DNA of 64,000 nt, taken from Octopus vulgaris. Its lineage: Eukaryota. Shown piece by piece: positions 1 to 63,500 of the stretch (within the stretch, counting starts at the first letter, position 1; each line of letters begins with the position of its first letter). Location of the stretch: the NCBI GenBank assembly GCA_951406725.2, contig OX597815.1, forward strand, positions 91,202,001 to 91,266,000. Direction: 5' to 3'. The notes beneath the pieces are model-generated. The model worked only from the letters and a program-made list of their open reading frames with translations, was not told where the DNA came from and searched no databases. Position numbers and translations under genes: made by a program.

Positions 1-333
1 AATCGTTGCCAGTGTCGCCTTACTGTGGCACATGAAAAATAACATTCGAGCATGATCATTGCCAGTGCTGCCTGACTGGCTCCCATTCAGGTGGCACATA
101 AAAAACATCTTTTGGGTGTGGTCGTTGCCAGTACCGCCTGACTGGCCCTCATGCCGGTGGCACGTAAAAGCACCCACTACACTCTCAGAGTGATTGGTGT
201 TAAGAAGGGCATGCAGCTGTAGAAACTTTGCAGATCAGATTGGATCCTGGTGCAGCCTTCTGGCTTGCTAGACCTCAGTCAAACCGTCCAACCCATGCCA
301 GCATGGAAAGCGGACGTTAAACGACGATGATGA
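1..333 (+). mobile_element. 3' tail of an RTE-associated repeat (~60-bp units, conserved tail, (GAT)n end)
   Basis: About three decayed units with GGCAC..AAAA and a GCCAGT..ACTGGC hairpin, then the tail CACCCACTACACTC...AAGAAGGGCATGCAGCTGTAGAAA...AACCCATGCCAGCATGGAAA...GATGAT. The same tail follows RTE ORF ends at ~24320 and ~59030. Other copies: ~2085-2340(-), 12190-12430(+), 13790-13900(-), 33800-34005(+), 37710-37880(-), 59550-59765(+), 59935-60250(-). Confidence 0.75.
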
Positions 334-1945: not shown

Positions 1946-3537
1946 TGTCATGACAGTAGGATACAGTAGCGAAAGCATTTCCACTGTATGAGGACATCAA
2001 GTAGCCAATAAACTGAGGATGAACTTTGCATAGCATACTACAAAGTTTCTATCCAAATCTTATTTAATTATATACATTATCATCATTATCATCAATTAAC
2101 ATCCGTTTTCCATGCTGGCATGGGTTGAATGGTTTGACTGAGGTCTGGAGAGCCAGTGGCTGCACCAAGCTCCAATCTGATTTGGCAAAGTTTCTATAGC
2201 TGCATGCCCTTCCTAACGCCAACCACTCCAAGAGTGTAGTGGGTGCTTTTTACGTACCACCAGCATAGGATTTGGAATTGACCACGTTCAGATGGTGCTT
2301 TTACATACCACCAGTCAGGGGGGACCAGCCCCAGCTACAATATTGGTTTTACTTGACTCAACAGGTCTTCTCAAGTATATCATATCGCTCAATGCATCAG
2401 GGGTATTCTTAACATCTCAGAACGTACAAACGAACTAAATGCTGCTAAGCACATCTCATGCAGGCTACCCACACTGCATACCTCACACTATGGCAATTTA
2501 TCTTGTAAATGAGTAACTTTGCTCTTTAGTCCTATACTTTCTTCTTTCTTCTAGCTTGCTCAGGTTTTATACTACTGTTAGTGAGATGATGACCCAATGA
2601 AAATAGATTGAGCAATTCAATCTATATTTCACACATTATTTCATAACAGGCTGTTGGCTGGTAATTTTTACCTTAGATAAGTTTTAGCTTTTATATTTTA
2701 TCATTGAATTGTTTCAGTCATTAGATTGAAGCCATGCTGGGGCACTTCATCAATGTCTTTTGCCAAACAGCTAACTTATGGGGACGTAAACACATCAACA
2801 CCACTTATCAAGAAGTGGTGGAGGACAAACACAACAAACACACACACACACACACACACATACAAACAACGAACTTCTTTCAGTCTTTGTCTACCAAATC
2901 CACTCATAAGCCCAAGGCTATAGTAGAAGACGTGCAGTGGGACTGAACCTGAAATGATGTGGTTGGGAAGCAAGCTTGTTACTACGCAGCCATACCTTGA
3001 CCTATAAGTTGAATAATTTTTATTATTTTATGTGAAAACTAACGAAAGTTGATTATTTGGGTTCATTTATTGTATGATTGACTCTCTTTCCATTCAGTGT
3101 TATGAACAGTCAATGATAAAAGGTGAGATTCTAGTGTTCAACGGTGAGATTCTTGTACTTACCCTGGGATAAGTCCTGAGTCTGAGGCTTTTCCCATTAA
3201 TTTCAGAGGACTGTTCTCCAGTGCTATGAAATTAATCTACTTTTCTAAGTCATGAATTCCAAATCGCTTTTGTTCCATGTTTGCAGTAACTGTGTTCTAA
3301 TTCATCTACTTATATGGTTTGCTCACTAAACTGACCATTTTTCAACATGCAGATGTCCAGTTGCTTTCTAATTTTTGTATATATGCTTATATGTATGTAA
3401 AAACTCTGTTTGCGTATGTGTGTCTGTGTGTATTTACAGATATATACATATAAGCATAAAAAAAACATACATGAATACAGTTACGTATATATGTTGCATC
3501 CATTTATTAATATAAACAGAAACTCACTAACACCTTT

Positions 3538-3576
<39 letters not shown>

Positions 3577-5049
3577 ACACACACACTCACACACACACAG
3601 ATATATACACTATCTCTCACATTCTCTCTCTCACTCTCAGACACACACACACTCACTCACACACACATATTGATAGGCAAGAAATGAATTCAGTTCTGTA
3701 GTATTATATTTGATTATCATACATAAGTCAGGAGCACACAGAATAGCCACGTTTACCATATTTCTTTTAAAGGATTTAATCTATTCCCTGTGTAAAGAAC
3801 TATCATTGTCCTGTCACTTTTGTCAACCTTCAAGTCTCCATAAATACTTTGTGACGATCCATTCTTCCAAAAGTTTGTGTTAATTGTAGCTATTATGTCT
3901 GCAGATAAAAATATATCTGAATTCACTCACATTGACTCATATTCATTTACCTGTCTGCCTTTATACTTAACAGTGAAGATAATACGCTAGCTTTACAGAA
4001 CACTGTTTGCATTTTCCTGAATATTTCTGCCCATAAGAAAAGCACCAAGGTCTTTAATAGCTATACCAAAGTGTAATGGAATAAGATAAAGATTTTGTTT
4101 AAGTTTATCCCCTCCACTTACATATATACTGTCTTAGTTTATGTTCCTATATTCTTGCAATAAAGAACTCATTTAATATTTGAACAACATTTGAGAGAAA
4201 GGGAAGATGAAGTCAGCTGGCTATCAGAAAATATCCATTCTTCGTCTCCAGTGAGATAACCATTTGCAGTGATTGCATATAAAAGTAAGGAGAAGCTAGT
4301 GTAAGTGTTATTTCTATAGCGTCTTATTTATTCCTGAAAGCCATTGGGAGAGATAGTTCTTAATGAACGTAGGCTTTCTGAAACAGTACAACATAGCTTT
4401 AGATAGATTTCACCACAATTGTTTTCTTTCGTAGCTGAAATCCCACTGATTAGTAAAAGCACATTTTGTCTCAACAAATAGCTATTAGATATGCATTGCT
4501 GTAATTATTATAAATACTTTAACATACGCCATTATCATCATCATCATCATCATCAGTATCCACAACATCAGCATCCATATCGTCATGGTCGTTATCATCG
4601 TCGTCATCATCATCATCATCACCACCACCACCAGAAAGAGCAGCAACAATCGCAGCAATACATCAAACATTATCCATATCAACAGTTACCATCATTGTTT
4701 TGAAAATCAAGAACAGCAATAATATCAAAATCATTGATGCTACTGGAAGAATAAAAAGTTATAAACAACTTTCTGAGACCTGTCTTGTTTAACAAATGTA
4801 TATATTTGTACATATGAATATAGACAGATATAGATAGGTGTGTATGTATGTATGTATGTATGTATGTATGTATGTATGCATATGTCATCATTAACAATAT
4901 ATAAATATACGTATGTGTATGTATGTATACTCATATATATAAATATATGTACTCTACAAAAGTGTGAGTAACCTATCAGTTTAATGTAAAATTGTTTTTA
5001 TTATAACTGAACATAAAAACAACCATGTATGTATGTGTGTGTGTGTGTA

Positions 5050-7896: not shown

Positions 7897-8712
7897 TTAG
7901 GTCATCCCATAAGTTTTGTCCGATTTTAACTTTTTTTAAATTGAATGAAATTTAATAGTATTTCAGAATGTCTGATGGAATTAAAAACTATTCTTATGCA
8001 TTTGTGTATATTTAAACCAATTAAATATTATTTTGCAGAATAATAGAACTGAAATTTCTTTGATTAAAACCCTTTCTAGCATGGAAGTATCCAAAGAGCA
8101 TAGAGGCAAATAATGCTTTATGAATACAAAAATGGATACTCTGCAGCTGAAGCGACTCGAAACATACACTCAGTTTATGGGAAAGAACGGTTGAATGAAA
8201 GAACTTGCAGAAGATGGTTTGCAAAATTCAGAAGTGGAGATTTCAGCCTTGAAGATGAAGATCGAACAGGACGTCCAGTTGAGTTTGATAAGCTCCTTGA
8301 GGCATTACTTGAAGAAAATTCTGCATTATCAGTTGAAGAATTGGCAATAAAGCTTAGTTCAAACCATACAACTGTTCATCGTCGTCTTCAACAACTTGGA
8401 AAGGTTCTTAAACTTGGAAAATGGGTGCCTCAGGAATTGTCCGAAAGCAACCGCAAATCCGGAGTTGACATCTGCTCTTCTCTCCATTCTCACGAACTCA
8501 TTTCACCCGTTTAGATAGACTTGTGACTGGTGACAAAAAATGGATCTTCTATCGAAATGTTAAATGTCGTAAACAATAAAAGGGAAAAGGTTCAACCACA
8601 ACCGAGAAGGGAACTTCATGGGAAAAAGGTTCTTCTCTCTATCTATTAATTGTTACCACTTAATGCAACAATCAATGCTCAAGTCTACTGTCAGCAATTA
8701 GAGCGTTTGGGT
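7897..8712 (+). mobile_element. 5' part of a mariner transposon (truncated transposase pseudogene)
   Basis: TA-flanked left end ttaggtcatcccataagt. ORF 8113-8514 has the HTH (ERTCRRWFAKFRSGDFSLEDEDRTGRP) and WVPQEL (WVPHEL motif), followed by VTGDKKWI after a frameshift. No right TIR seen. Confidence 0.9.
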
Positions 8713-11760: not shown

Positions 11761-12497
11761 AATATGAAATACAATTTATTTGAGTAAAGAATTACATTTA
11801 TGCATACTCACAGGAAAAAGCATTAGCAATGAGAAAGCAAACGTGTATGTGGGGTATTTCAGCTGAGTTATATTAGTAATTCAAAGGCCAACTTTGTTAC
11901 ATTCTGTGTCTTACTGAATTTCTCTCAGAATTCATTAAGTGTATACATGTTCATGGAGTGCTCAGCTATTTGCATACTAATTTCATGAGCAAGCTGTTCT
12001 ATTGATCAGATCAGCTGAAGCACCCATTTTAACCAACAGGGTGTCAGTTTATTTACATATATAAGGATGACCTCAGGACACTGAACCTTATGGAGGAGAT
12101 GACAAAGGACCAAGAAATTTGGTGCCTTGCTGTACTCAAGAATTGTTAAGGCTGCTCCCTCTGATTAATAGGATTGACCTGCAAGAGTTCTATGCTGGTG
12201 CCACATAAAAGCACCTGTGCCAACGTCATGTAAGAATACTCATGCCAGTGCAACATTAAAAGCACCCACTGTAAAGTGGTTGATGTTAGAAAGGGTATCC
12301 AGTTGTAGAAATCAAGCTAAATCAGAATGAAACCTAGTGCAGTGCTCCAGCTTGCCAACTCTGGTCAAACCATCCAACCCCTACCAGTATGGAAAAAGAG
12401 ATGCTAAAGGATGATGATGATGATGATGATATATATATATATAGAATCGAATGTAGAAATACATAAATCCAGAGGTGAAGCACACTCTAAGATGTAA

Positions 12498-21029: not shown

Positions 21030-24000
21030 AGATGACAGTATTGTAATTAGTCCCCATAGAAGATGCATACCCACAAAGGCTTTATGAAACTGAAGGAAAT
21101 TGAAATTGTAATTCATGCTGTTACCTGCACCCACTGCATCCAGCCAAGCAACCACAAAGATATTCTTCTTTCCAGATGTTGAAAACATCTCCCAACATCC
21201 CTACCAGCTTTCCCAGGTCCACAGGATATGAGCTTCCACAATCAACGTTGGCACAGTGAAAGGTAGGTCTAGTGAGATTGTTGAAATGCTTGAGCAGAAA
21301 AGTGTAGATGTGTACTGTGTGCAAGAGGTATGAGGAAGGGGAACCTCAACCAGATTGCTTACAGACAAGAGTCATAGACACAAGCTTTTCTGAGTGCGCA
21401 ACAATGATTGTCTAGGTGGTGTTGGTATTCTTCTGGCAGAGAAATGGGTGGATAAGGTAACTGAGGTAGTCAGAGAATGTAATAAGATTAGTAAGTCTTG
21501 TTTAATGTAAGAGTATCATTTATCTCTGCATGTGCTCTACTCATCAGACTCACGGATATTCAGTAGGAATGTTTCTATGAATCCTTTCTGTGGTTTACCT
21601 CAACAACAAAAGACAATGACGTTCTCATTGTGAAAGGGGACTTCAATGATCATGTTGGGAAATACTTCGATGTATTTCAGGGTGTGTATAGAGGCTACAA
21701 TTTTGGCTCTAGAAATGCGAGGGAACACGGCTGCTACAGTTTTGTGATGTACTGGACTTACTAGTCTACAACAGCAACTTCAGGAAACCTGCCAGCCATC
21801 TGATCACTTATCACTCTGGTAGGCACACTAGCCAGATTTACTACATTCTCACCAGAAACAGGGACATGCATATGCTAGTGAATGCAAAATCCTTTCTAGG
21901 TGAAAAATGTACAACTCAACAAAGGCTAGTGGTTAGTGACTTCAGACTTAAGGCTAGAATAATCCAGAGCCACAAACTGATATGAAAAAGGAGGTTATGG
22001 AAACTCAAGGAACCTTCAAAAGGGCAGAGATTTAGAGATATTCTTAACGAAGCCTTTCATGAGAAGGAGGAAGAGATGGAGACATATGACATAGAGGACA
22101 ACTGGAAGTTCAAGCAGGACAATCTCCTGAAGGTGACAGAACAAATCTGTGGTTGGAGCAAAGCCTCTGCCAGACCAAGAGTGACATAGTGGTAGAAGAG
22201 TGAGGCTGACAGGGCCATAAAAAAAGAAGAGACAGGTGTGGAAAGAGTGGAAAAGAGAAGGATAGCAAAGAACCATATCAGATAGCTTTTTTTGTGATCC
22301 CCTTCGGTCATGAATGACCATGGGATTGCACCTAGAAAGTTACCCTCTGAGGCACAAGTCGCCCATGCATACTGGCCATCAGATAGCTAAAAGAGAAGCT
22401 AAGCATCAGATTTGTCTAGCTAGGGCAGAAACAGAAAGGAAGAGATTTGCCAATGTCTTGCAGCATGAAGATCAGAAACTTGAAGTGTTGCAGATTGCTA
22501 GGCAGTATCAGAGAGAATCGAGATATTGTGAGCGAGAAGTGTGTATGGATGGATAATGATATGTTTGCACTAAATGATTTTGAAAAGAAAGTGGCATGGA
22601 AGAGTTACTATGTAAAGTTATTAAATGTGGAGAATGAAGGGGAGCAAGGGAATTTCCCTCATGTGAACCTAACAGAAAAACCAGTTATCTTAGTTGACAA
22701 CAGTATAATAGATAGAGCAATTAAAGGTATGAAGGCAGGACAAGCTCTTGGTCAATCTGGAGTCACTGCTGAGATATTTAAAATATCAGCCTTGTCACCT
22801 GCATAGTTAATCAGGTTATTTAGTAAAGTGCAGCCTCTAGTGACTGGTGTAGTAGCATTATAGTCAGTTGTTACAAGAGAGATGCCACAGACCAATGTAA
22901 TTATAGAGGCGTTAAATTGCTGGACCAGGTGATGAAAGTTACAGAGAGTTATAGCCCAATTAATTAGAAACAGAATTATGCTAGATAATAGGCAGTTTGG
23001 CTTTGTGCTGGGGAGAAGTACTACTGATGCAAGAAGAGTATTTATCAAAGAATAAGCCATTATGCTTGACATTTGTTGATCTAGAGAAAGCCTGGGTGAT
23101 ATGGTGGGCTCTGTGGGTGCTTGGAGTAGATGGGTGGCTTGTGAAAGCTGTACAGGCCATGTACAGGGGCTCTGTCAGCAAGGTGAGAGTTGACCATGAG
23201 TACAGTGATGGATTTGGTGTACAAGTAGTCACTCATCAGGACTCAGTTCTCAGTCTCCACCTTTTCATAATAGTCCTTTGGGCCATAACAGAGGAATTCA
23301 AGACCGGACTGACCCTGGGAAGTGTTATATGTTGATGACCTTGCTCTCTTAGCAGATTCTGTGACAGAACTAGAAAAGAAATTCCATGTGTGGAAGCAAA
23401 ACCTGGAATCAAAGGGACCTAAGATTAACTTATCGAAGACTAAGATTTTAGCAAGTAACAAAACAGCAGGGACCCTACCCACTTTAAGTGAATGGTCCTT
23501 AATATGTGGAAAAGGTATAGGCAGGAACTCCATATGGTGTACTTAGTGCACAAGAGGTGCAGTGAAATAATATAAGGGTATTGGGCTATCAGAGAAAGCA
23601 GTGTTTGTGGAAGATGTAGATACACCAGAACTATAAAGGATACACATACTCAGGAAATTAATTCTCTCAAATACCCAAGAAGCTCTTTAGAGGTACTGGA
23701 TAATTTCTGCTACCAAGGGAGTCAAATTAGTAGTGGGAGTGGATGTACAAAAAGTATAAACACTAAAATAAGAATAGGATGGAGAAAATTCAGAGCTTTT
23801 GCCACTGTTGGCAACCAAAGGTCTCTCTCTCTCTCCAAGTGAAAGGAAGATTGTATGGTGCATATATACAAACAGTGATACTACATGGTAGTGAAATATG
23901 GGCCCTGAATGCAAAGGACATGTAAAGGCTAGAGAGAAATAAAGTTAGTATGCTCTGCTGGAGGTGCAGTGTAAGTGTACATGTGTAACAGAGTGCTAGC

Positions 24001-24512
24001 ATATTGAAAGAAAAGTTAGGCATAAGAAGAATTAGATGCAGTATGCAAGAAAGAATGTAGCGCTTGTTTGATCAGGTGATGCGGATGGATGTAGAGACTA
24101 CATAAAGAAATGCTGATCACTTAAAGTGGATGGAACTATTGGAAGAGAGAGATCCAGGAGGACATATGACAAAGTACTAAAGGTTGATCTCAAGACACTG
24201 AGCCTTATAGAGGACATGACAAAGGACTGAGATATTTGGCACCTCACTGTATTCAAGAAGACCTGCCCACAACAGTAAAATTATTAATGCTCTCCTCCAA
24301 GCTGAAAAGGGTTTTGCCTTGCAAGAGCCCTCATGCCAGTTCATGTAAATAGCACCCAGCACACTCTTGTAAAGTGGTTGGTGCTAGGAAGGACTTGCAA
24401 CCATAGAAACCAAACCAAATCAGACTGGAACCTGGTAAAGCTCACCAGCTAGCCAGCTCTGGTCAAACCAATCAGCCTATGCCAGCATGGAAACCAGATG
24501 TTAAATGATGAT
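21030..24512 (+). mobile_element. near full-length decayed RTE-clade LINE (APE endonuclease + RT) with 3' tail
   Basis: APE motifs VDVYCVQEV (~21305) and GDFN (~21638). RT motifs LTFVDLEKA, HQDSVLS and LYVDDL (~23325-23342), then a Cys-rich segment and C-terminal GRxRxT. The tail ends in (GAT)n. Many stops and frameshifts. Confidence 0.92.
22288..22377 (-). mobile_element. short retroposed insertion inside the RTE LINE
   Basis: Flanked by the direct repeat ATCAGATAGCT (22277 and 22378), oligo-T at the left end, and a stem-loop GGTCAT/ATGACC near its 3' end. Confidence 0.75.
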
Positions 24513-28720: not shown

Positions 28721-29984
28721 TAGTCTTATGCTATTATTTTTCAAGAACCAATTCCAAAAAGAGAATTATTCAACGTTCTCTCAAAAGTTTATAGATTCTT
28801 GACATCAACAACATACAGTTCTTCCTGGTAAGTATAAGGTCTCTAAAATGTATAGAGAAAATTCAAGGATTGCTTTGGTACAGTAAGAGTATGCCTATCA
28901 AGTTTACAAGAGATGTGAGTTCAAGTCCCACAAGCAGCCTTCAACTTTTTATATCCAAAAGGGTTTTTCAACCCAATATTTACAAGCTATTATTAATAGC
29001 TTTTTGTGAACCAATTCCAAACAAGAATTATTCCTGTTCTCTCGACGATTTATGAATTCTTATGACTTCAATAATACATATATACATATTATGTGTGTGT
29101 GTATGTGTATATATATATATATATATATATAAAATGATGGTGGTGGTGGTGGTGGTGGTGGTGGTAACGATGATGATGATCACAGTTCATACCATAAATA
29201 ATGGAAGGGTAGTAGAAATTATATGCAGACCCTCCAAAATCAGTGAGATTTGTGGAGCTGATGTTTAGTTTGAATGTTTACAGGAGTAATATTGGTAAAG
29301 ATTGGAACCATGAAGATTCAATAACATAAGTACCATACAACACTACAAGGCATGGATTCTGCTACTTTTTAGAAATACATACTATTATCTTTTACCTTTT
29401 ATATTATACTTGTTTCAGTCACTGGACTGTGGTCATGCTGAGGCACAGCCTTGAAGGGTTTAGTCAAACAAATCAACCCCCACTATATATATTTTTTTCA
29501 TTTAAAGCCTAGTGTTATTCTATCTGTCTTTTTTGCAGAATTGCTAACTTACAGGGATGTAAACAAACCAAAAACCAGTTTTCAAACAGTGGTAGGGAAC
29601 AAACACCTCATTATGAAATCTCCCTTCACTACATGTTTCTTTTGTTAGGTGTACATATTATACATTATAGATGCAGACATGGTTGAAGAATTAAGAAGAG
29701 TTCTTTATAATCATCAAATCCTGGGTTCAATTCCAATGTGTAGCATCTTGAACAAGTGTCTTTTATCATAGCCCCAATCAGACCAAACATTGAGAAATTA
29801 TTTGGAAGCTCATCAGATGGACTTTAGCATGTAATACAAGGGACCAGGTTTGTCAAACAAATTCATACTCATTCTCTCTGAGAATGAAGTCAAGGGTACA
29901 CATGTCTGTGTATCCTTGACTAACTCAGCCATTTTTGTTTTCTTTATAAGAAGTCCCAGACAAGTTAAGAAGCCACTTAGTGTA

Positions 29985-33107: not shown

Positions 33108-34019
33108 GTAAAAACATTGGAGAATGGCGTTCACAAATTGCATTTGTTGCTTAGTTTACAAATGTTTCATTGATTTCTATTAAAACCAATCTTGCATCAT
33201 GTCATTACCATGTTGACAATTACACATTTAGTTCCATGCACTGAGCAATTTTTTCCTTCATAGTACATGGCAGAATCAACTTCTTAGAACACTACAAAAA
33301 GAAATATGCTGGTTGCTTTTGCAATTTTTCTGGTAAGTATCCTCATAGGAATTTTAAGTAAACACTTACTACTAACCACATTTATCCAAGAAAAATAAAG
33401 GAAGAAAGGAGATAAATTAGATGAATTGGGATCAGTGAAATTTGACAAGATACGTAGCCCTAATCAGGGTGTGAAGGAACTTGCTGAAAGGATTTCTCTA
33501 GATTAATGAATACCAAGTACAGTGGTTTACTTTGGGATAAATTCTTCCGCAATTGCTTCACTAGAAAGAGAGCATCAGCAGTATTTCTACCAAGTACAAA
33601 ACCAAACTGCATCTCATCTAGGCTTGATCATTGGGCCTCACAGAGGTGAGTTCCTTTCAGGCGTTGGGCCTCACAGAGGCAAAGTAGTTGAATTCCTTTC
33701 GAGGTTTCAGCCTCACGGAGGCAATGACTGAGATCTTTGGCATTATGTCATGCTTGAGAAGACACATCAAGCTGAGCAAAATAGCAGTTGTAGCAGATAC
33801 CAGTGTCATGCAAATGGCACCCATGCTGATGATATTTAAAAGCAGCCATTACACTCTCAGAGTGGTTGGTGTTAAGAAGGACATCCAGCTGTAGAAACCA
33901 TGCCAAATCAGACTGTAGTCTGGTGCAGCCTTCCAACTTGCCAGCCTTGGTCAAACCATCCAACCCATGGACAACGGACGTTAAATGATGATGATGATGA
34001 TGGTATATATATATACCTC

Positions 34020-53289: not shown

Positions 53290-55185
53290 TATTTCACCAT
53301 TTTTGTGGCTTATCAACATCATGTACTGGAATCAAATCACCAGTCTATGACTATATATAAATAGTGGAAAAACTATTTGCTGGTGTACCACGGTGATGCA
53401 CACATAAGATTAAATTCAATAACAAATTAAAAACAGTGCTAGTGTTATAAGCATTATCAACTGCACATATTCAATGTATGTGTTTTGTTTGCCAGTTTGC
53501 TGCAAAATAGCTTTTGGAAAGATGATTCCATTAAAACACCTGAAAGTCATAGACAAGCAAGACAACTCACCTCCATTCAAATTCAAAAGTGATAGATTGA
53601 TTATAAAAAGGCTTATGACAATGCTCCACACAGCTGGCTCTTGGAGTGTCTGAGGTTACTTGGAGTCATTAAGAAGATAAACAACATTTTGGAGAAATCA
53701 ATGAGAGCATGAGAAGTAGAACTGACATTTGTGAAGGAGTCACTAAGCAATGCATGGGCATTTTTCAACAAGACTTGCTCTCTCTATTACTCTTCATCAT
53801 TGTGCTAATTGCCCTGATAAGTAAATCTAGGCCTGCCTATGAGTTTACCAAATCCAAGATGAGAATAAATCACCTACTTCATACAGATGACCTCAATCTG
53901 CATACAAAGATTGAGACAGACCTAGACTCTTTAGTACAAGGAGTAAGTGTAATGAATAAAGATATTACAAAGTAGTTTGGGGTAAATAAATGTGCAATTC
54001 TAATTATGAGGGTAAACTATGATTGCATAATATTACCACAAGACAACATCATTATATCACTGGAATAATGAGGGATACAAATATCTATAAGTGCTGCTAG
54101 ATAAGAAAATGGAAAGAGAAATGAGAGAGTAAGTCATTAAAGAGTACAATTAGGAAGGTACTTGAAACTAAATTAAATGGTAGACACATGATTAAAGCCA
54201 TAAGCCATAAATGCATGGGCATTGCCCATATTGAGATACTCTGATCCCTTTTTGAAATGGGCAAAGATCAAGCTGCAGAACTTGGAGAGAAGAACTAGAA
54301 AGTTATTCACAATGCACAACACATTTCACTCTCAAATCAATACTGATCAACTGTACCTACTAAGAAAGAAAGGTGGCAGGGGATTATTAAATGCAGAAGA
54401 CACTGTTAATACTACAATACTGGGTCTGAAATATTATATTGTACAGAGTAAAGAAAGAACACTATAGGCAGACAGAGATTCCTAAAAAGTAACTGAAACA
54501 GTAGGAAAAGCCACCGAGAAAAGGAAGAATAACAGCAAACAGATGGAAAGAAATAGAACTACATGGCCAATTCATGCAACAAACTGAGAATGCCAGAAGT
54601 AAAGAGCAATGGTTCTGGTTGTTAGATGGGAACTTAGAATGAGAGACAGAACTGCTAATTATAATTGCTCAAGAACAAGTCCTTAGAATAAACCTGATAA
54701 ATGCAAAGATCAACAAAACTCACACAGCAAATGTAGAATCTACAGGAAAGAAGAAAAAACTATCACTCACTTTTCAAGTAAGCACAGTTTACCAGCACAA
54801 ATGCTATCATAAAAGCAGACATGATTGTGTTGGCAAAAGAGTGCATTGGAATGTTAACCAAGTGTGTAGCTTCAAAACAACAGAACAGTGGTATGAGCAC
54901 AAACTAATGGCTGTGATAGAAAAATAAGAACTACAAGATCTTGTGGGATTTCCCCACAAAGACTGACCATATTATTGAAGCAAGAAGGCCAGATATGATG
55001 ACGAAGGACAAAATAAACAAAAAGTGTAAGATCATAGATTTTGAAATTTTCAATATTAAAAATTGAAAAAATTGAGAAATATCAGGATCTAGACATGATG
55101 CTAAGGAAACTCTGGAAGACAAAAACAATAGTTATTCCTGTTGTAATTGGTGCACTTGGCACAACACCCAGAATGCTATATAAAA
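53290..55185 (+). pseudogene. RLE-type LINE (R4/Dong-like) RT + zinc knuckle + endonuclease remnant
   Basis: DYKKAYD, GIFQQDLLSLLLF, INHLLHTDDL, DQLYLLRKKGGRGL, IIAQEQVL, RHDCVGKRVHW, KILWDF..TDHIIEARRPDM and VIPVVIGALG; many stops. Confidence 0.88.
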
Positions 55186-56174: not shown

Positions 56175-56400
56175 GGTTGAAAAAGTTTATTTCCTGTGCT
56201 CTCCTAGTGTTTATTGCTCCTGCACATGTGCTACGACAGTTTGCTTTGTCTGTTACTCTCCCTGTGGTTCTACTGCACTTCTTGTATACCCAAAGTTTTC
56301 ACTGGATACTCTATATGGAATTTCTAACTCCTCTTCTCTGACATACTGAACAATGCCATTTCTCTGGTGGAAGCAGAATCCTGTCTGTTTTCCTACTAAC
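56175..56400 (-). pseudogene. RTE LINE fragment (Cys-rich segment)
   Basis: Minus strand KWHCSVCQRRGVRNSI*SIQ*KLWVYKKCS...CAGAI, homologous to 23480-23625 of the long RTE. Confidence 0.75.
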
Positions 56401-56892
56401 TAAAACTTTGGTCATATGTAAAAATTTTGAAATTTTGATTCTTTTAACGTTTTCATTTTATATTGCTTCATTGTTTTTTTTTTAAGATATTCTTTTATTC
56501 TTTTACACATTTCAGTCATTTGACTAGAGCCATACTGGAGCACCACCTTAAAGGATTTTTAGTTGAAGAAATCAACCCCAGGACTTATTCTTTGTAAGCC
56601 TAGTACTTATTCTATTGGTTTCTTTTGCTGGACCGCTAAGTTACTGGGACATAAACACACCAACGTCGGTTGTCAAGCAATGGTGGGGTAACAAACAATG
56701 ACACACACACATAAGTATATATATATATCATATGGTTAATTGTGCCTATTTATGTATTCATGTACATATATAGGTGTATATATTTGCTTATGTATATATA
56801 TGTGTATCTATGTATGGATATATACTTATATATATATTAAATTGTATGTGTATCCTGTTTCATGTATATATTTATATTTTGAAAGTACTTTA

Positions 56893-57000
56893 TAATCTCT
56901 GAGGAGGCCCCATTTTTAACTGCCTACAACTTCAATATAATTGACAAGTATAGGCACAAAAAAAACTTTTTTCCATATACTGAAACATCTTTAAGTGATT
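56893..57000 (+). ncRNA. decayed hammerhead ribozyme
   Basis: aatct-CTGAGGA (56899-56905)...GAAAC (56982-56986)-atct-tta-agtgatt, with an internal TGCCTA/TAGGCA hairpin. The base of stem II and stem III are eroded. Confidence 0.5.
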
Positions 57001-57190
57001 TTAATGATTCTAACAATTTAAATTAATGTTTTTCTAATAACTACTTGTATTCTTATCTTAAATGTATTGAATTTTATGCTGTATATATGTATGCTATTAT
57101 GGTTGTAGTTTTGATAATTAAATAAGGCAACATTCTAATATCCTAAACCTGATACACCAACTAATGTGTTTCTCCATTTTCATATTTGTA

Positions 57191-57229
<39 letters not shown>

Positions 57230-57312
57230 CACATACATAGATATGTATATACATATTTATATATACATACATATGTATATACATATTTATATATACATAC
57301 ATACAAGTGTAT

Positions 57313-57371
<59 letters not shown>

Positions 57372-57465
57372 TATATATATTTATATATATATTTGTGTGT
57401 GTGTGTATATATGTATGTATATATATATACATACATACATATATATATACATATATATATATATA

Positions 57466-58165
57466 CCCGTGTCGGTGGCACGTAAAAGCACCATCCGTTC
57501 GTGGCCGTTTGCCAGCTCTGTCTGGCCCCGTGTCGGTGGCACGTAAAAGCACCATCCGTCCGTGTCCGTTGCCAGCCTCGGCTGGCCCCGTGCCGGTGAC
57601 ACGTAAAAGCACCGTCCGCTCGTGGCCGTTTGCCAGCTCTGTCTGGCAACCGTGTCGGTGGCACGTAAAAGCACCATCTGTTTGCATCCGTTGCCAGCCT
57701 CGGCTGGCCCCCGTGCCGGTGACACGTAAAAGCACCATCCGTTCGTGGCCGTTTGCCAGCTCTGTCTGGCCCTGTGTCGGTGGCACGTAAAAGCACCATC
57801 CGTCCGTGTCCGTTGCCAGCCTCGGCTGGCCCCCGTGCCGGTGACACGTAAAAGCACCGTCCGCTCGTGGCCGTTTGCCAGCTCTGTCTGGCAACCGTGT
57901 CGGTGGCACGTAAAAGCACCATCCGTTCACGTCCGTTGCCAGCCTCGGCTGGCCCCCGTGCCAGTGACACGTAAAAGCACCGTCCGTTCGTGGCCGGTTG
58001 CCAGCTCTGTCTGGCCCCGTGTCGGTGGGACATAAAAGCACCATCCGTTCGTGTCCGTTGCCAGCATCGCCTGGCCCCGTGCCGGTGACACGTAAAAGCA
58101 CCATCCGTTCGTGGCCGTTCGCCAGCTCTGTCTGGCACCTGTGCAGGTGGCACGTAAAAACACCC
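57466..58165 (+). repeat. GC-rich tandem array, 11 units of ~61 bp plus a partial unit, alternating A/B
   Basis: Unit CCCGTGYCGGTGRCACGTAAAAGCACCRTCCG..CCGTT(T)GCCAG[CTCTGT or CCTCGG]CTGGC. It runs directly into the RTE-type tail, which ends in (GAT)n at ~58332. Confidence 0.95.
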
Positions 58166-58332
58166 ACTACACTCGCGGAGTGGTTGGCGTTAGGAAGGGC
58201 ATCCAGCCGTAGAAACACTGCCAGATCTGACTGGGCCTGACGAAGCCTTCCAGCTTCACAGACCCCAGTTGACCCGTCCAACCCATGCTAGCATGGAAAA
58301 CGGACGCTAAACGATGATGATGATGATGATGA

Positions 58333-58365
<33 letters not shown>

Positions 58366-58377
58366 TATCATACACAG

Positions 58378-58408
<31 letters not shown>

Positions 58409-58555
58409 AAGCTTCTTTCAGTTTACGTCTACTAAATCCACTCACAAGGCTTTGGTCAGTCCAAGGCTATAGAAGAAGACAGTTGCCCAAGGTACCATGC
58501 AGTGAAACTGAACACAGAACCATGTGGTTGGCACTTCACAGCTATGCCAGCGTCT

Positions 58556-59457
58556 ATGGATGTGTGCATACTCAACAGAGTGTAAGTGCCTTGAGAGAAA
58601 AGTTGGACTTAAGAAGCATCAGATGTGGTGTGCAAGAGAGACAATTGCGCTGGTATGGTCATGTGGTGAGAATGGATGAGGATAGCTATGTGAAAAATGT
58701 CACACCCTAGCAGTTGAGGGAACCTGTGGAAAAGGTAGACTCAGGAACACCTGGGGTGAGGTAGTGAAGCATGACCTTTGAACATTAGGCCTCACTGAGG
58801 CAATGACTAGTGACCAAGACCTTTGGAGATATGCTGTGCTTGAGAAGACCCAGCAAGCCAAATGAGACCATAACCCATAGCCGATGTCAGTGGTGTAACC
58901 AGCCCACTTATGCATACTTTTCCTTCATTGGACACTAAACTCCACTTGCGAAGACATGTTGAGGCAAGTGAAATCGAAATCAAATTCAATGACAGCAATG
59001 CATGACTGGCATCCATGCTAGTGGAGCGCTAAGAACACCATCCGAGCATGATCATTGCCAGGGCTGCTGACTGGCTCTAATGCTGGTGGCATGTAAAAAG
59101 CACCATTCGAGCATGATCATTACCAGCGTCACCTTACTGGCACTTGTAAAAATCAACATTTGAGCAAGGTTGTTGCCAGTGCTGCTGGACTAGTTCCTGT
59201 GCAGTTGGCACATAGAAAACACCATTTGACCATGTCCATTGCCATTACCACCTGACTGGCCCTCATATCAGTTGTACATAAAAGTACCCACTACACTCTC
59301 AGAGTGGTTGGTGTTAGGAAGGGCATTCAGCTGTAGAAACTCAGCCAGATTAGATTGGAGCGTGATGCAGCCATCTGGCTCGCCAGTCCTCAGTCAAACC
59401 GTCCAACCCATGCCAGCATGGAAAGCATATGTTAAACAAAGATGATGATGATGATGA
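58556..59457 (+). mobile_element. RTE LINE 3' end with unit-bearing 3' UTR
   Basis: LREKLDLRSIRCGVQERQLRWYGHVVRMDED..GRLRNTW, then 3-4 decayed ~60-bp units and the tail. An inverted relative lies at 59935-60560. Further ORF-end fragments at ~1545-1680 and ~12060-12150. Confidence 0.85.
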
Positions 59458-59769
59458 TAATTATATCAATTGTGTTGTTATTGTGTAAAAGTAATGTATT
59501 GTTATTTGATAAATGGCTTAAAATATTTGTTTTATTACATAAAATGCACTATTGCCGGTACCACAGAGAATGCACGCATGCTGGTGCTACATAAAATGCA
59601 CTCAAGCAGGTAGAATATAAATAGCACCCAGTACACACAGTAAAGTGTTTGGCATTAGGAAGAGCATCCAGCCATAGAAGCCAGGCCAAAACAGACAAAG
59701 CTCCTGTCAAACCATCTAACCCATGCCAGCATGGGAAACAGACATTAAATAATGAGGATGATGATGATG

Positions 59770-59916
59770 GCGGTGGTGGTGGTGGTTATGATGGTGGTGG
59801 TGGTGGTGGTGGTGGTGGTGGCGGCGGCGGTGGTGGTGGTGGTGGTGGTGGTGGTGGTGGTGGTGGAGGTGGTGGTGGTGGTGGTGGTGGTGGTGGTGGT
59901 GGTGGTGGTGGTGGTG
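59770..59916 (+). repeat. (GGT)n microsatellite
   Basis: Long GGT run with a few GGC/GGA interruptions. Other simple repeats ((TA)n, (CA)n, (TACA)n, (GAT)n, (TAA)n, (GA)n) occur throughout the window. Confidence 0.95.
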
Positions 59917-62419
59917 ATGAGGATTTTAGTTATCATCATCATCATCATCATCATCCGTTTTCCATGCTGGCCTGAGTTGGACGGTTTGACTGGGGTCTGG
60001 GAAGCCAGGAGGCTGCACCAGGCTCCAGTCTGATCTGGCAGTGTTTCTACAGCTGGATGCCCCTCCTAAGGCCAACCACTCCGAGAGTGTAGTGGGTGCT
60101 TTTTATGTACCACCAGCACAGGGGCCAGAGGAGGCTGGCAATGACCACGATCGGTTGGTGCTTTTTACGTGCCACCAGCACAGAAGCCAGTCAATGTGGC
60201 GCTGGCATCGGCCACATTCAGATGGTGCTTTTTACGTGCCACTGGCACGGGGATCATAACTACTGTTTCCATTTGATTTTGATTTTGATGTACTTGACTC
60301 AATAGGTCTCCTCAAGCACAGCATGTCACCCTACAATCCAAGGTACTTTTGAGTGGGCTGGTTATGCAACACTGGTGTAGATTACAGTTGTGAACTCACT
60401 TTATTTTCCAGGTCTTCTCAGTCACAGCATATCTCCGGAAGTCTCGGTCTTTCGTCATTGTCTCTGTGAGGTCCAACATTCGAAGGTCATGTTTCACCAC
60501 CTGATCCCATATCTTCCTGAGTTTCCCTCTACCCCGAGAGAATGTAAATGGAATGGGACATTTCTTTACTGCACATTTTCTTCTTTTTTTTTGCTTCATT
60601 AAAATTGTGACTTCTTATGTAACCTATTTCTCTTAACCATTTAAAGATTGAACTCATACAGTATTTATTTTCAACTCCAAATGGTTCTAAGTTATCATAA
60701 GTGAAGGCTGAAACCCCACTTCATCTCTCAGAATTTGATAAAGCAAGTTTATTGATCAAGTGACTCTTGTTCCTCTTCTATGAAAATCTGACAAATCTGT
60801 TGTTGAAAGAAATCCATATTTTTTCCATGTTTGAATTATTGCTACTATTGTTTCCATTCTTAGAAATATATCATTATAAAAGATCTCCTCTGGTTCAAAA
60901 TAAATCTGACAATTTTGTAAGTTTTATTTCTTTTCCCTTATCTCACTTTATACTGTTTTATTGTAGAATTATTTCGACAAGAGAAATTAAGGAAAAAATT
61001 TTTTAAAAAGTTCCAAAAAATTGTCACCTTAAAAAATGAAAATAAAAATGGTTGCAGCTAATTTAATAATATTTCCTAGAAATATATAACTCCTTCCCCG
61101 ACTGTCTTCTGATAATTTTAAATTGCTCCAAAGATTAGATTCAAAATCCAATAATATCTTTAAAGAATGAAAGAGAAAACATTATAAAGTCAGCAATAAC
61201 AACAATGATAATATCATTAATAATAATGATGATAATAATAATAATGATGATGATGATGATGACAGAAAATAATTATTATAGTAAAACCCAAATTCCTCCA
61301 ACCCTCATCTACTCTCAAAGATGCACACAAAATAACCTTTTGAAATGATTACTTTCAGAGTTTTGGGTGAATTAGAGGTCTTTGAGTGATATTCTTGATT
61401 TGGATGATGGAAAACTGTAGAAAAAAAAAATGCAGATTAATTTACTGTAAGAAAAAATCATTATGTGGTATTATAAGTGATCAAAACTGATTTGGATAGG
61501 AAAAAATATAATAAAATAAATATATCGAAAGAATACACCAAAGCTAAACAATGCAACAATACTACCACCATCACCACCAACAACGACATTGTCTACAACA
61601 GCAGCATCAGTATTAGTAGCAACAAGAAACTAGCCTTGTGGTATCAAAAACGATGTGGAAAAACTTTCGGAAAGTACTAATCTTTATTTATTTCAGTCTA
61701 TAATCTTCTTAAGGGTAAAGCTTTCCACTGTTTTCAGTGAAATAAAGAGAAGTACAAACATGCTTCAGCTTAGAAGCAAACAACAACAGCAACAACAAAT
61801 AACGAAAGAAAAATTGATCTGGTTTCACCTCACAGAAAATTGTATTATATGATTGCCATTAAGATTTGCTTAGAAAATACAATAGATATAGAAATAAATA
61901 TAGAAAAAAAACAAAAGCCATATATTTTTTCTCTACCTGTCTATGTCTATCTGTTAGACTGACTGACCATCTAAGTCAGTAACAGTATTCATTCTTTCTC
62001 TATTTTATTATCTCTCTCTTTCTCCTCCTCCTATCTCTCTCTCCCTCCTTCTCTCCCTCTCTCTCTCCTTCTCTCTTTCCTTCAATAAATTTGTTTTTTC
62101 ATATGCACACACACACACACATGCATACACACACACACATGCACACACACTCACACACAAACACATACACACACATATTCATGCAAAGCTCCAACTCAAT
62201 AATAACCCCTAATTGTATGTGCAGGGCAAACACACAATATGCTAGAGTTGTGCACTTTAGTGGAGTGGCTAGGTGGTAACAACTGTGAGAGACCTTCACC
62301 TGTCATCAAACAATCATGCTTTCCCTTTGAGGTGCAGTAAAAAGGCAAAAAACATCAACCCTCCTATCATAAGAGATTCTCCTCCTGTCAGGTAAAACAT
62401 CTCAGAAATACAGCAGGTA

Positions 62420-63500
62420 CAAGGAAAAGTAGGTATGGTGTGATTATAGACAAGCTAGATGTATGACTGAGAGAAGCTTCAGTCAAACTCCTCTCCAGCA
62501 AAAATATCAGTGCAATACCAGCAAAGAATACCAGTTCTTCTGGGTAGGTAACAGTACTGGTTTAAGTGGAGTAGACATTCTGCTTGCTGGAATGTAGGCA
62601 GATAATGTGATGAAGGTAGTAAGAGTGGTATGTGACAGGATTAATTGGGGAAAAGTAATAGATATTATCATCACAATTGTAGGCAAAGTAATAGCAAATG
62701 TTATCACTGCCTATGTCCCACTATTGTGACTAACTAATGAGCAAAAGAGCTACTTATCATATGTGAGGCTCTCTCATGAACCTCCTCAATAACAGATGAC
62801 AGAAACACCCTTATCCTTGGCTGGCGACTTTGGAGGATGTTGGGCAGCACTGTGATGGCTACTCTGGAATACATAGTAGTTATTTTTATTCTTCTAGAAA
62901 TAATGAGGAATCAAGGCTTTTGGTGTTCTATGAAGCAAATGAGTTAACCATTTGCAATATTAACTTCAAGGAACCAAATGCCACTTCTTTACCTTTCAAC
63001 CAGGTAAACTACAAACCAAAAAGTTTTCTTTCAAACAGGAAAACAGTCTTTTTCTGGTGAAAAATGTATCACCCAACATGAACAGAGAACCAAAAAAAAA
63101 AATTGAAAAATAGAAAAAGAAAATCTGGAGAAGCAAGGTGTGGAAACTAAGACATCTCTCTGCTAAATATATGTGCAGAGTGATTCTAGGTGATTGCCAT
63201 AATGGTAAAAAGGAGATACAGGGACCTATAATTTAGTGGACAACAAGAAGTTTCGAACTTGCTAAAAGCTATAGACAAGGTATATAGCTGGAACAAGGTA
63301 TTAATTAGATGGGAAGTAACAGGGTGGTGGTGTACTACCATGGATATGACCATAAAAGCTGAAAGACAGGCCTGGAAAGAATGGAAGAAAGAGGACAGCA
63401 AAATGCAATACCACATCACAAGAAAAGAACCTAGAATTATAAAGATATATAGTGCAGAGGGAAGCCAAAAGAATAAGGTTTGACATCCAGCACTGAGAGG
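62420..63500 (+). pseudogene. decayed RTE LINE 5' part (APE endonuclease and linker)
   Basis: GVDILLAG, VRVVCDRI, ITAYVP, AGDF and WWCTTMDMTIKAERQAWKEWK; collinear with 21300-22450. Confidence 0.75.

Follow-up and report, generated by a model that had tools for sequence, protein, structure and literature searches.

The 64-kb stretch of octopus DNA analysed here (the window) contains an array of eleven tandem units of about 61 bp, and the question raised by this locus is whether such an array represents an RNA structure multiplied under selection or a repeat that is carried along by a retroelement. A first-pass annotation had proposed the former, namely a multimerised RNA module of variable copy number, defined by helices across the unit boundaries and possibly acting as a ribozyme. 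The variable unit number is supported, whereas the functional module across boundaries and the ribozyme are not. We propose, with a probability of roughly two thirds, that the array is a minisatellite in the 3' UTR of a LINE, expanded by duplication of DNA, and that function resides in the terminal stem-loop of the element and possibly in a single copy of a core predicted to fold as a pseudoknot. Coordinates are collected in Table 1.

Table 1. Features of the array element, its flank and the related family copies in the window.
Feature	Positions	Strand	Remarks
(AT)n/(ACAT)n microsatellite, 5' flank of element	57199-57465	.	similar repeat at 3' flank, 58332-58408
Array, 11 units of 60-62 bp, alternating A/B, 245-bp higher-order period	57466-58137	+	5' end of element is a unit start
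Unit 1 core (one in each unit), predicted H-type pseudoknot	57468-57492	+	S1 CGUGY/RCACG, 1-nt L1, S2 GGUG/CACC, L3 UAAAAG
GCCAG/CTGGC hairpin region of unit 1	57508-57526	+	6-nt variable loop; in 11/11 units
Terminal half-unit, core only	58138-58167	+	resembles motif 2 of Nin/Deu SINE domain (by eye)
Small hairpin ACTC-NCG-GAGT	58171-58181	+	loop variable; stem without listed variants in three contig sets
42-nt RTE 5'-UTR-type motif	58182-58223	+	95% identical to L122:3996-4037, just ahead of ORF
Long hairpin	58229-58270	+	predicted in young and old tails
3'-terminal stem-loop, common to L122 3' end	58275-58306	+	3/10 pairs with two-sided changes
(GAT)7 terminal repeat	58313-58333	+	
Older copy, cut by window edge: ~2.5 units and tail	1-333	+	
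Older copy behind ORF end, core alone repeated	12190-12428	+	anchors 12206, 12231, 12256; period 25
Near full-length decayed LINE (endonuclease, RT, PHD-finger region), same tail, 0 full units	21265-24512	+	
Older copy: RT-ORF C-terminal remnant, spacer, 4 units, tail	58561-59456	+	
Older copy, core repeated at period 26	59536-59769	+	
Older copy: ORF end, spacer, 2 units, tail	59931-60540	-	

Architecture and expansion of the array

TRF analysis of positions 57466-58164 gave periods of 61 (11.4 copies, 81% matches), 122 (90%) and 245 (94%), and 12 core anchors delimit the 11 full units and the terminal half-unit. Odd-numbered units differ from one another at 0-5 positions and even-numbered units at 1-8, compared with 7-14 differences between odd and even ones; units 3 and 7 show no difference at all, and the pairs 2/6, 1/5 and 4/8 differ at one, two and four positions, respectively. 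Periods and distances together confirm the A/B alternation and the four-unit periodicity described initially. Unit 1 is a recombinant that combines B-type arms with an A-type 3' half. The duplication steps can be read from the unit distances: multiplication of the 61-bp 3'-UTR unit likely took place in the DNA, through a dimer and then the duplication of a tetramer, and amplification of the dimer would account for the alternation. The GCCAG/CTGGC hairpin, reported with a fixed stem and a varying loop, is present throughout the array; its persistence in older family copies holds for the stem, which is retained there with longer loops and no two-sided changes.

With eleven units, a half-unit and a tail, the element has the composition by which retroelement-derived satellites (sSats) are recognised, that is at least four tandem internal units and an extended terminal unit. 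In the accessible part of their description, the SINE-derived satellites of squamates likewise repeat an internal 60-140-nt portion of the retroelement, possess an extended terminal unit, display alternating locus-specific subvariants and elongate by dimers (PMC10702118); the alternation concerns up to 25% of long loci, and dimer elongation was put forward as a proposal. The octopus array differs in its source, an invertebrate LINE 3' UTR, in its family, which is normally multi-unit, and in its short length of 11 units. Bov-A2 is also a dimer of its unit (PMC5786205, in part), and the VNTRs of SVA and LAVA are organised arrays of GC-rich units within a non-LTR retroelement that undergo remodelling at the DNA level (PMC4432496, in part). 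Here, the lineage and the partner LINE are others. The array itself is therefore ordinary, as alternating and dimer-amplified retroelement minisatellites have already been described.

The array copy as the probable 3' end of a LINE

A search with a tail profile found 11 family copies with E below 1e-8 in the window. Eight of the regions upstream of tails were examined: five match the C-terminal end of an RT ORF, which supports the early recognition of the tail as RTE-type, one holds spacer only and two match nothing. The number of full units per copy varies from 0 to 4, as against 11 in the array copy; the variability had been anticipated correctly, with a range (1-4) that left out copies without any unit. 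The LINE remnant at 21265-24330 aligns to residues 4-986 of an endonuclease-RT-PHD protein (P0011), and its RVT_1 match (E 2.8e-5) lies below the curated cut-off; Pfam missed four of five short decayed ORF pieces. A single ORF comprising APE endonuclease and RT precedes the tail in other copies and is absent from the truncated array copy. Because tails follow RT-ORF ends, a near full-length LINE bears the same tail and other copies carry 0-4 units, the array copy is most simply interpreted as a 5'-truncated insertion that retains the 3' end of an abundant RTE-type LINE and belongs to a young subfamily of it. We infer the RTE clade from the domain order, a C-terminal motif and the tail, as these features are generally known, and not from a tree. 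A target-site duplication is not discernible, both flanks of the element being AT/ACAT microsatellite.

In the spacer between the ORF end and the first unit, the last ORF codons are partially repeated at 60290-60330 (minus strand), 58940-58990 and 2350-2385 (minus strand), which means that this 3' UTR has undergone more than one internal duplication. The RTE LINEs described from octopus, RTE-2_OV among them, resemble the present family in clade, in their single endonuclease-RT ORF, in abundance and in the recent activity of some families, whereas RTE-2_OV itself is described, in the portions of the literature at hand, as having a C2H2 finger and a 3' UTR that consists mostly of microsatellite (PMC9115989, PMC13282606). 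Three tail motifs had no match in the eight supplement files searched of the octopus RTE literature. A name for the family may already exist in Repbase, in Dfam or in the supplements of SINEBase, which contain family and domain consensuses (PMC3531059, in part).

A composite tail

The tail is a composite of a Nin-like core, an RTE 5'-UTR-type motif, a hairpin, an RTE 3' stem-loop and a GAT repeat. Two of these parts connect it to a related RTE-type locus, L122: the 42-nt motif matches there with E 2.8e-15, ahead of an in-frame ATG at 4048, and the last 60 nt of the window tail are 75% identical to the 3' end of that locus. L122 is a tandem of two elements, of which the first retains an intact frame of 1143 codons. 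This first element has its weaker copy of the motif within the open frame, where it precedes the endonuclease domain, so that the 5'-UTR status is clear for the second element only; the motif is not evident upstream of the two endonuclease remnants in the window. L122-L125 are near full-length eukaryotic LINEs in contigs filed as bacterial MAGs, likely a contamination.

Across seven sequences the terminal stem-loop shows two-sided changes at three of its ten pairs. As judged from these comparisons it is the best-supported structure of the element, and is likely a recognition element of the reverse transcriptase. The enzyme would grip this stem-loop and prime on the GAT repeat, with the extra units as putative passengers. 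Many LINE and SINE 3' ends present the same order of parts as the stem-plus-A-tract of the unit core, that is a stem, then (G)UUAAA or UAAAA, then a simple repeat; examples are window positions 58272-58312, L027, L122:3435-3480 and the ends of bivalve V-SINEs.

The core of the 42-nt motif is widespread in animal repeats. In metagenome contigs the tail motif occurs at no fewer than 120 loci (about 3300 stretches estimated), mostly within another invertebrate short repeat; the pattern search fixes the motif letters exactly, so that no covariation can be read from these loci, and the unit profile has no match in them. This abundant short repeat, which makes up most of L003-L121, starts with the same RTE 5'-UTR-type motif, ends with a stem, GTTAAAC and a GT repeat, and is probably a bipartite non-autonomous RTE. 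The tail pattern gave no match in viral contigs, and the pattern of unit plus tail none in genome contigs or plasmids.

Relationship to SINE central domains

Among the checks suggested by the first-pass annotation was the Meta domain of SINEs. Behind the head, the printed BivaMeta and BivaMD sequences (2 of 15 families) are, by eye, unlike unit or tail. The Deu/Nin domain, in contrast, resembles the unit: window positions 160-177 agree with the printed Nla_Nin, on the 3' side, at 17 of 18 letters and the terminal half-unit at 16 of 18, both by eye. The Nin/Deu/Inv domain, in those parts of its description that were accessible, shares with the unit the arms CCCGTG...GCACG, an A-rich linker and a CCC run, and most printed consensuses display, by eye, complementarity between the loop and downstream sequence (PMC4758252, PMC4824008). 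The Nin/Deu domain as printed there reads as two tandem stem-plus-UAAA motifs, each with a possible loop-to-downstream pairing. In motif 1 of Nin the stem shows, by eye, two-sided changes at several places, and a UCGG/CCGA pairing is constant; motif 2 of Nla_Nin is without loop-to-downstream complementarity. The octopus unit differs in that it corresponds to motif 2 only, has a much shorter stem-loop, is repeated in tandem and lies in a LINE 3' UTR.

Could the array copy descend from a SINE of this type, rather than from the LINE itself? It would then represent a Nin/Deu SINE of tRNA origin that lacks its head and ends in a bipartite RTE tail. The order of Nin-like core, RTE 5'-UTR motif and RTE 3' end is indeed the anatomy of bipartite RTE SINEs (PMC5786205, in part), the array copy contains no ORF sequence, and its young tail differs from those of the ORF-linked copies. 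However, LINE ORF ends account for five of the eight upstream regions and none of the eight is tRNA-like, while Nin motif 1 (a TCGG stem-loop with AAACCG) has no match in the window at up to three mismatches. A head derived from a small RNA (tRNA or 5S) is absent ahead of the tails, where ORF ends or unrelated sequences are found. We regard this origin as improbable. The sole tRNA-like gene called by ARAGORN in the window starts at 28868, far from any family copy; this call (28868-28940, tRNA-Asp-like with an ATC anticodon) is probably a SINE head or a pseudogene. The pattern of Nin motif 1 has no match in viral contigs either.

Bipartite RTE SINEs and non-autonomous RTEs such as Bov-A2, the Ceph-SINEs and HaSE1 join a segment of an RTE 5' UTR to an RTE 3' end and a microsatellite tail (PMC5786205, in part), as does the present tail. 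Here, in contrast, the block stands behind RT-ORF ends and belongs to the LINE's own 3' UTR, and an RNA-derived head was not found; the motif GGAAGGGCATC has no match in the supplement of that study. The 3' UTR of the LINE thus seems to have captured a bipartite block made up of a SINE-domain-like core, an RTE 5'-UTR motif and an RTE 3' end, which is relevant to the proposed exchange of parts between the bodies of SINEs and the UTRs of LINEs.

The proposed helix across unit boundaries

Central to the initial interpretation was the complementarity of arms at nearly every junction. This fits eight of the eleven junctions, seven of them fully Watson-Crick and junction 5 with a terminal G-U. At junction 1 the variable pair is a G-U, and two mismatches each are found at junctions 10 and 11. 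Older copies read C on the left and G on the right at the variable pair; a single G>A in the right arm sets the A type apart, and a single C>T in the left arm the B type. Each type being a single arm change away from the older state, all junctions descend from one double change. The caveat that the covariation might reflect a single ancestral event that was later amplified is thus supported by the comparison of units.

Public contigs aligned over 58016-58312 (9,606 in set X14, 28,316 in X5 and 69,781 in X3) allow the two arms to be followed in the family at large. G at 58088 amounts to 43% in each set, leaving about 57% of the depth to the GACACG arm, and at the partner sites 58082 and 58144 no C>T is listed at 5% or above in any of the three. 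An A arm at this depth without a listed partner change points to an arm that is common in the family, and we infer that it usually faces C, a mismatch in the proposed helix. The B-loop G of the array (58070) occurs at 1.8, 4.4 and 6.1% in X14, X5 and X3. Contig depth is not copy number: it favours reference-like letters, clips mismatches near ends and leaves sites unlinked, and B-type arms may be undercounted as a consequence. In the raw-read run X23 only 17 of 12.9 million reads aligned, and runs X19 and X20 hold a share of 0.08 of the words of the stretch.

Structure prediction gives the cross-unit helix little prominence. RNAalifold on 12 units in the cross-unit register (six from the array, six older) predicts GGUG/CACC and CCAG/CUGG and does not recover the cross-unit helix, with none of its eight pairs two-sided. 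In the ensemble of the whole element, the helix to the next unit reaches a probability of at least 0.5 at 3 of 11 junctions, and the arms pair equally often with distant units. Single units (folding z from -2.0 to +0.8) and units in the cross-unit register (-1.4 to +1.5) are no more stable than shuffled sequences. The z scores of the whole array (-4.0 on the plus strand, -6.7 on the minus) were rejected as evidence of structure, since shuffling destroys the tandem arrangement and the strand that is not the transcript scores better. Moreover, two older copies repeat the core alone, at periods of 25 and 26, which places the boundary of the module inside the unit. A functional module whose defining helix crosses the unit boundaries is not supported, on these grounds: one double change, an A arm common without its partner, a helix absent from RNAalifold and reaching 0.5 at few junctions, and older copies with the core alone.

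One result speaks against our explanation. In a comparison chosen after the fact and limited to one lineage, undoing the two B-lineage changes makes the RNA fold 7.3 kcal/mol less stable. Of 400 random double changes, only 2 are equally stabilising; as DNA strands the corresponding numbers are 5 and 52 of 400, and the two changes rank 5 and 12 among 183 single changes in RNA stabilisation. A predicted stabilisation that is stronger as RNA than as DNA fits selection on the RNA. Both changes also perfect palindromes, and template switching can perfect palindromes in the absence of selection. The cross-unit A-U pair may accordingly be seen as having arisen once, in a minor lineage, through such palindrome-perfecting template switching or through weak selection.

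Selection on the multimer would go further: a minor sub-lineage would have gained cross-unit pairing for RNA stability or RT loading and been mobilised with many units, in the manner of the SVA and LAVA VNTRs. The helix kept at eight of eleven junctions and the stabilising effect of both lineage-specific changes agree with this; the B-loop variant, found in 4, 24 and 77 contigs of the three sets, may be multi-locus; runs bearing four organism labels contain a share of 0.76-0.89 of the words of the stretch; and the VNTR of LAVA affects mobilisation (PMC4432496, in part). Against this stand a single evolutionary event with an A arm that is common without partner change, arms that pair as readily with non-adjacent units in a helix that RNAalifold omits, and a near full-length LINE copy that does without a full unit. 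Selection on the multimer is in our view distinctly unlikely.

Search for a ribozyme

Self-cleavage of a monomer or dimer, releasing RNAs of 61 or 122 nt or circular RNAs, is the least probable of the readings, and we consider it very improbable. The match to Rfam that had been suggested as a check brought no ribozyme for the element at E up to 10; two matches in Rfam 15 (E 7.5 and 8.1) concern a lncRNA model at 6 bits against 90. Matches within 56500-61500 were driven by microsatellites only, and L122-L125 and L129 contain no ribozyme according to Rfam. The hammerhead core is present in none of the units, and the one CTGANGA in the tail is not followed by GAAA. Among other candidates, an HDV-like descriptor, applied without a shuffle control, gave one loose match that depends on the private changes of unit 9 and none on the minus strand, and readings as Pistol-like or type II hammerhead ribozymes, compared by eye with the general consensus, were rejected for their linker lengths and core letters.

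Judged by the geometry of the HDV ribozyme, the family-majority loop CCUCGC and the GG behind the cross-unit helix are loosely reminiscent of L3 and P1.1. HDV-like ribozymes are found at the 5' ends of RTE elements (PMC5786205, in part), and the tail holds an RTE 5'-UTR-type motif. Nevertheless, no ribozyme family of Rfam is matched, the HDV-like match is tied to one unit, a hammerhead core is missing, and the linker between the would-be P3 and P1 comprises 2-4 nt.

A predicted pseudoknot within the unit

The core that older copies repeat alone agrees in its geometry with an H-type pseudoknot: S1 of 5 bp, L1 of 1 nt, S2 of 4 bp, no L2 and an A-rich L3 of 6-7 nt. A descriptor designed on this motif yields seven matches in the window, all of them in family copies, and none in three shuffles. 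S2 is paired in 92% of cells across 18 distinct units and is also the GGUG/CACC helix of RNAalifold; nested folding, which cannot model the knot, gives the in-unit S1 little weight. The two variable sites of the cross-unit pair coincide with the same junction pair of the in-unit S1. Covariation of the pseudoknot among the decayed copies of the window remains at shuffle level (351/500 and 279/500). In the three contig sets, variable sites fall on 4 of 14 loop positions (plus an indel) and 1 of 36 stem positions (p 0.018), a count that omits 58146 G>A in S2 for its frequency of 2-3% in these sets (among raw reads, 3 of 5) and in which depth at stem positions comes mainly from young copies.

Among viral contigs, the motif-2 pattern has a single match, at L129:401-445, in non-coding DNA ahead of a GH25 lysozyme gene. 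It combines a 7-bp stem, a UUAAAG linker and a 7-bp loop-to-downstream pairing with a 3' motif common to the printed Nin consensuses; three extra pairs of S1 and the 7-bp S2 were not demanded by the pattern (null 1e-4), and Rfam gives no match for this locus. The unit pattern likewise has a sole match, in a coding stretch of another viral contig (L001:1495-1525, minus strand), which includes an S1 arm that was not part of the search and is probably due to chance.

We consider it about an even bet that the 26-nt core forms an H-type pseudoknot with the A-rich linker in the minor groove of S1, a compact element that would stabilise the template RNA or bind protein, and of which one copy would be enough. 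The principal alternative keeps the same identity and history, so that its confidence overlaps with that of our explanation, and differs on the core only: the minisatellite would be entirely neutral, neither the cross-unit helix nor the pseudoknot would form or matter, and the terminal stem-loop alone would be functional. Units no more stable than shuffles, covariation that does not exceed the controls and the lack of an Rfam match agree with such neutrality, as does the coding match in L001, whose unsearched S1 arm indicates that such pairings can arise without an evident link. Variation that sits in predicted loops, a core retained from one subfamily to another and similar to the Nin domain, printed Nin consensuses with two-sided stem changes (by eye) and the unsearched 7-bp S2 of L129 argue for the core instead, and we hold complete neutrality to be rather unlikely.

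The reason for the conservation of SINE central domains is stated to be unresolved (PMC5804259, in part), and the word pseudoknot occurs in none of the openly available papers listed for SINEs with the terms Deu, Nin or AmnSINE1, nor in the further SINE-domain papers listed. We speculate that the core could be an ancient H-type pseudoknot underlying both Nin/Deu motifs as well as the phage intergenic element L129, multiplied repeatedly in the LINE 3' UTR, alone or together with the hairpin. It would shield the template RNA or mark it for reverse transcription, which would explain why SINE central domains are conserved across phyla; in this extended form the idea is doubtful. Flaviviruses stack nuclease-resistant RNAs and offer an analogy for a multiplied core. 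A pseudoknot model of the Nin/Deu motif would make the conservation of the central domain testable with a 26-nt RNA.

Other repeats in the window

Further decayed fragments of LINE ORFs lie at 33475-33624, 53596-54032, 56239-56421 and 62520-63015, and a Mariner transposase fragment at 8104-8514 (HTH_48, E 1.2e-19). Close to the array, minus-strand fragments of another abundant SINE family, which we take to be of the octopus OR type, are found at 58408-58540 and 56520-56710.
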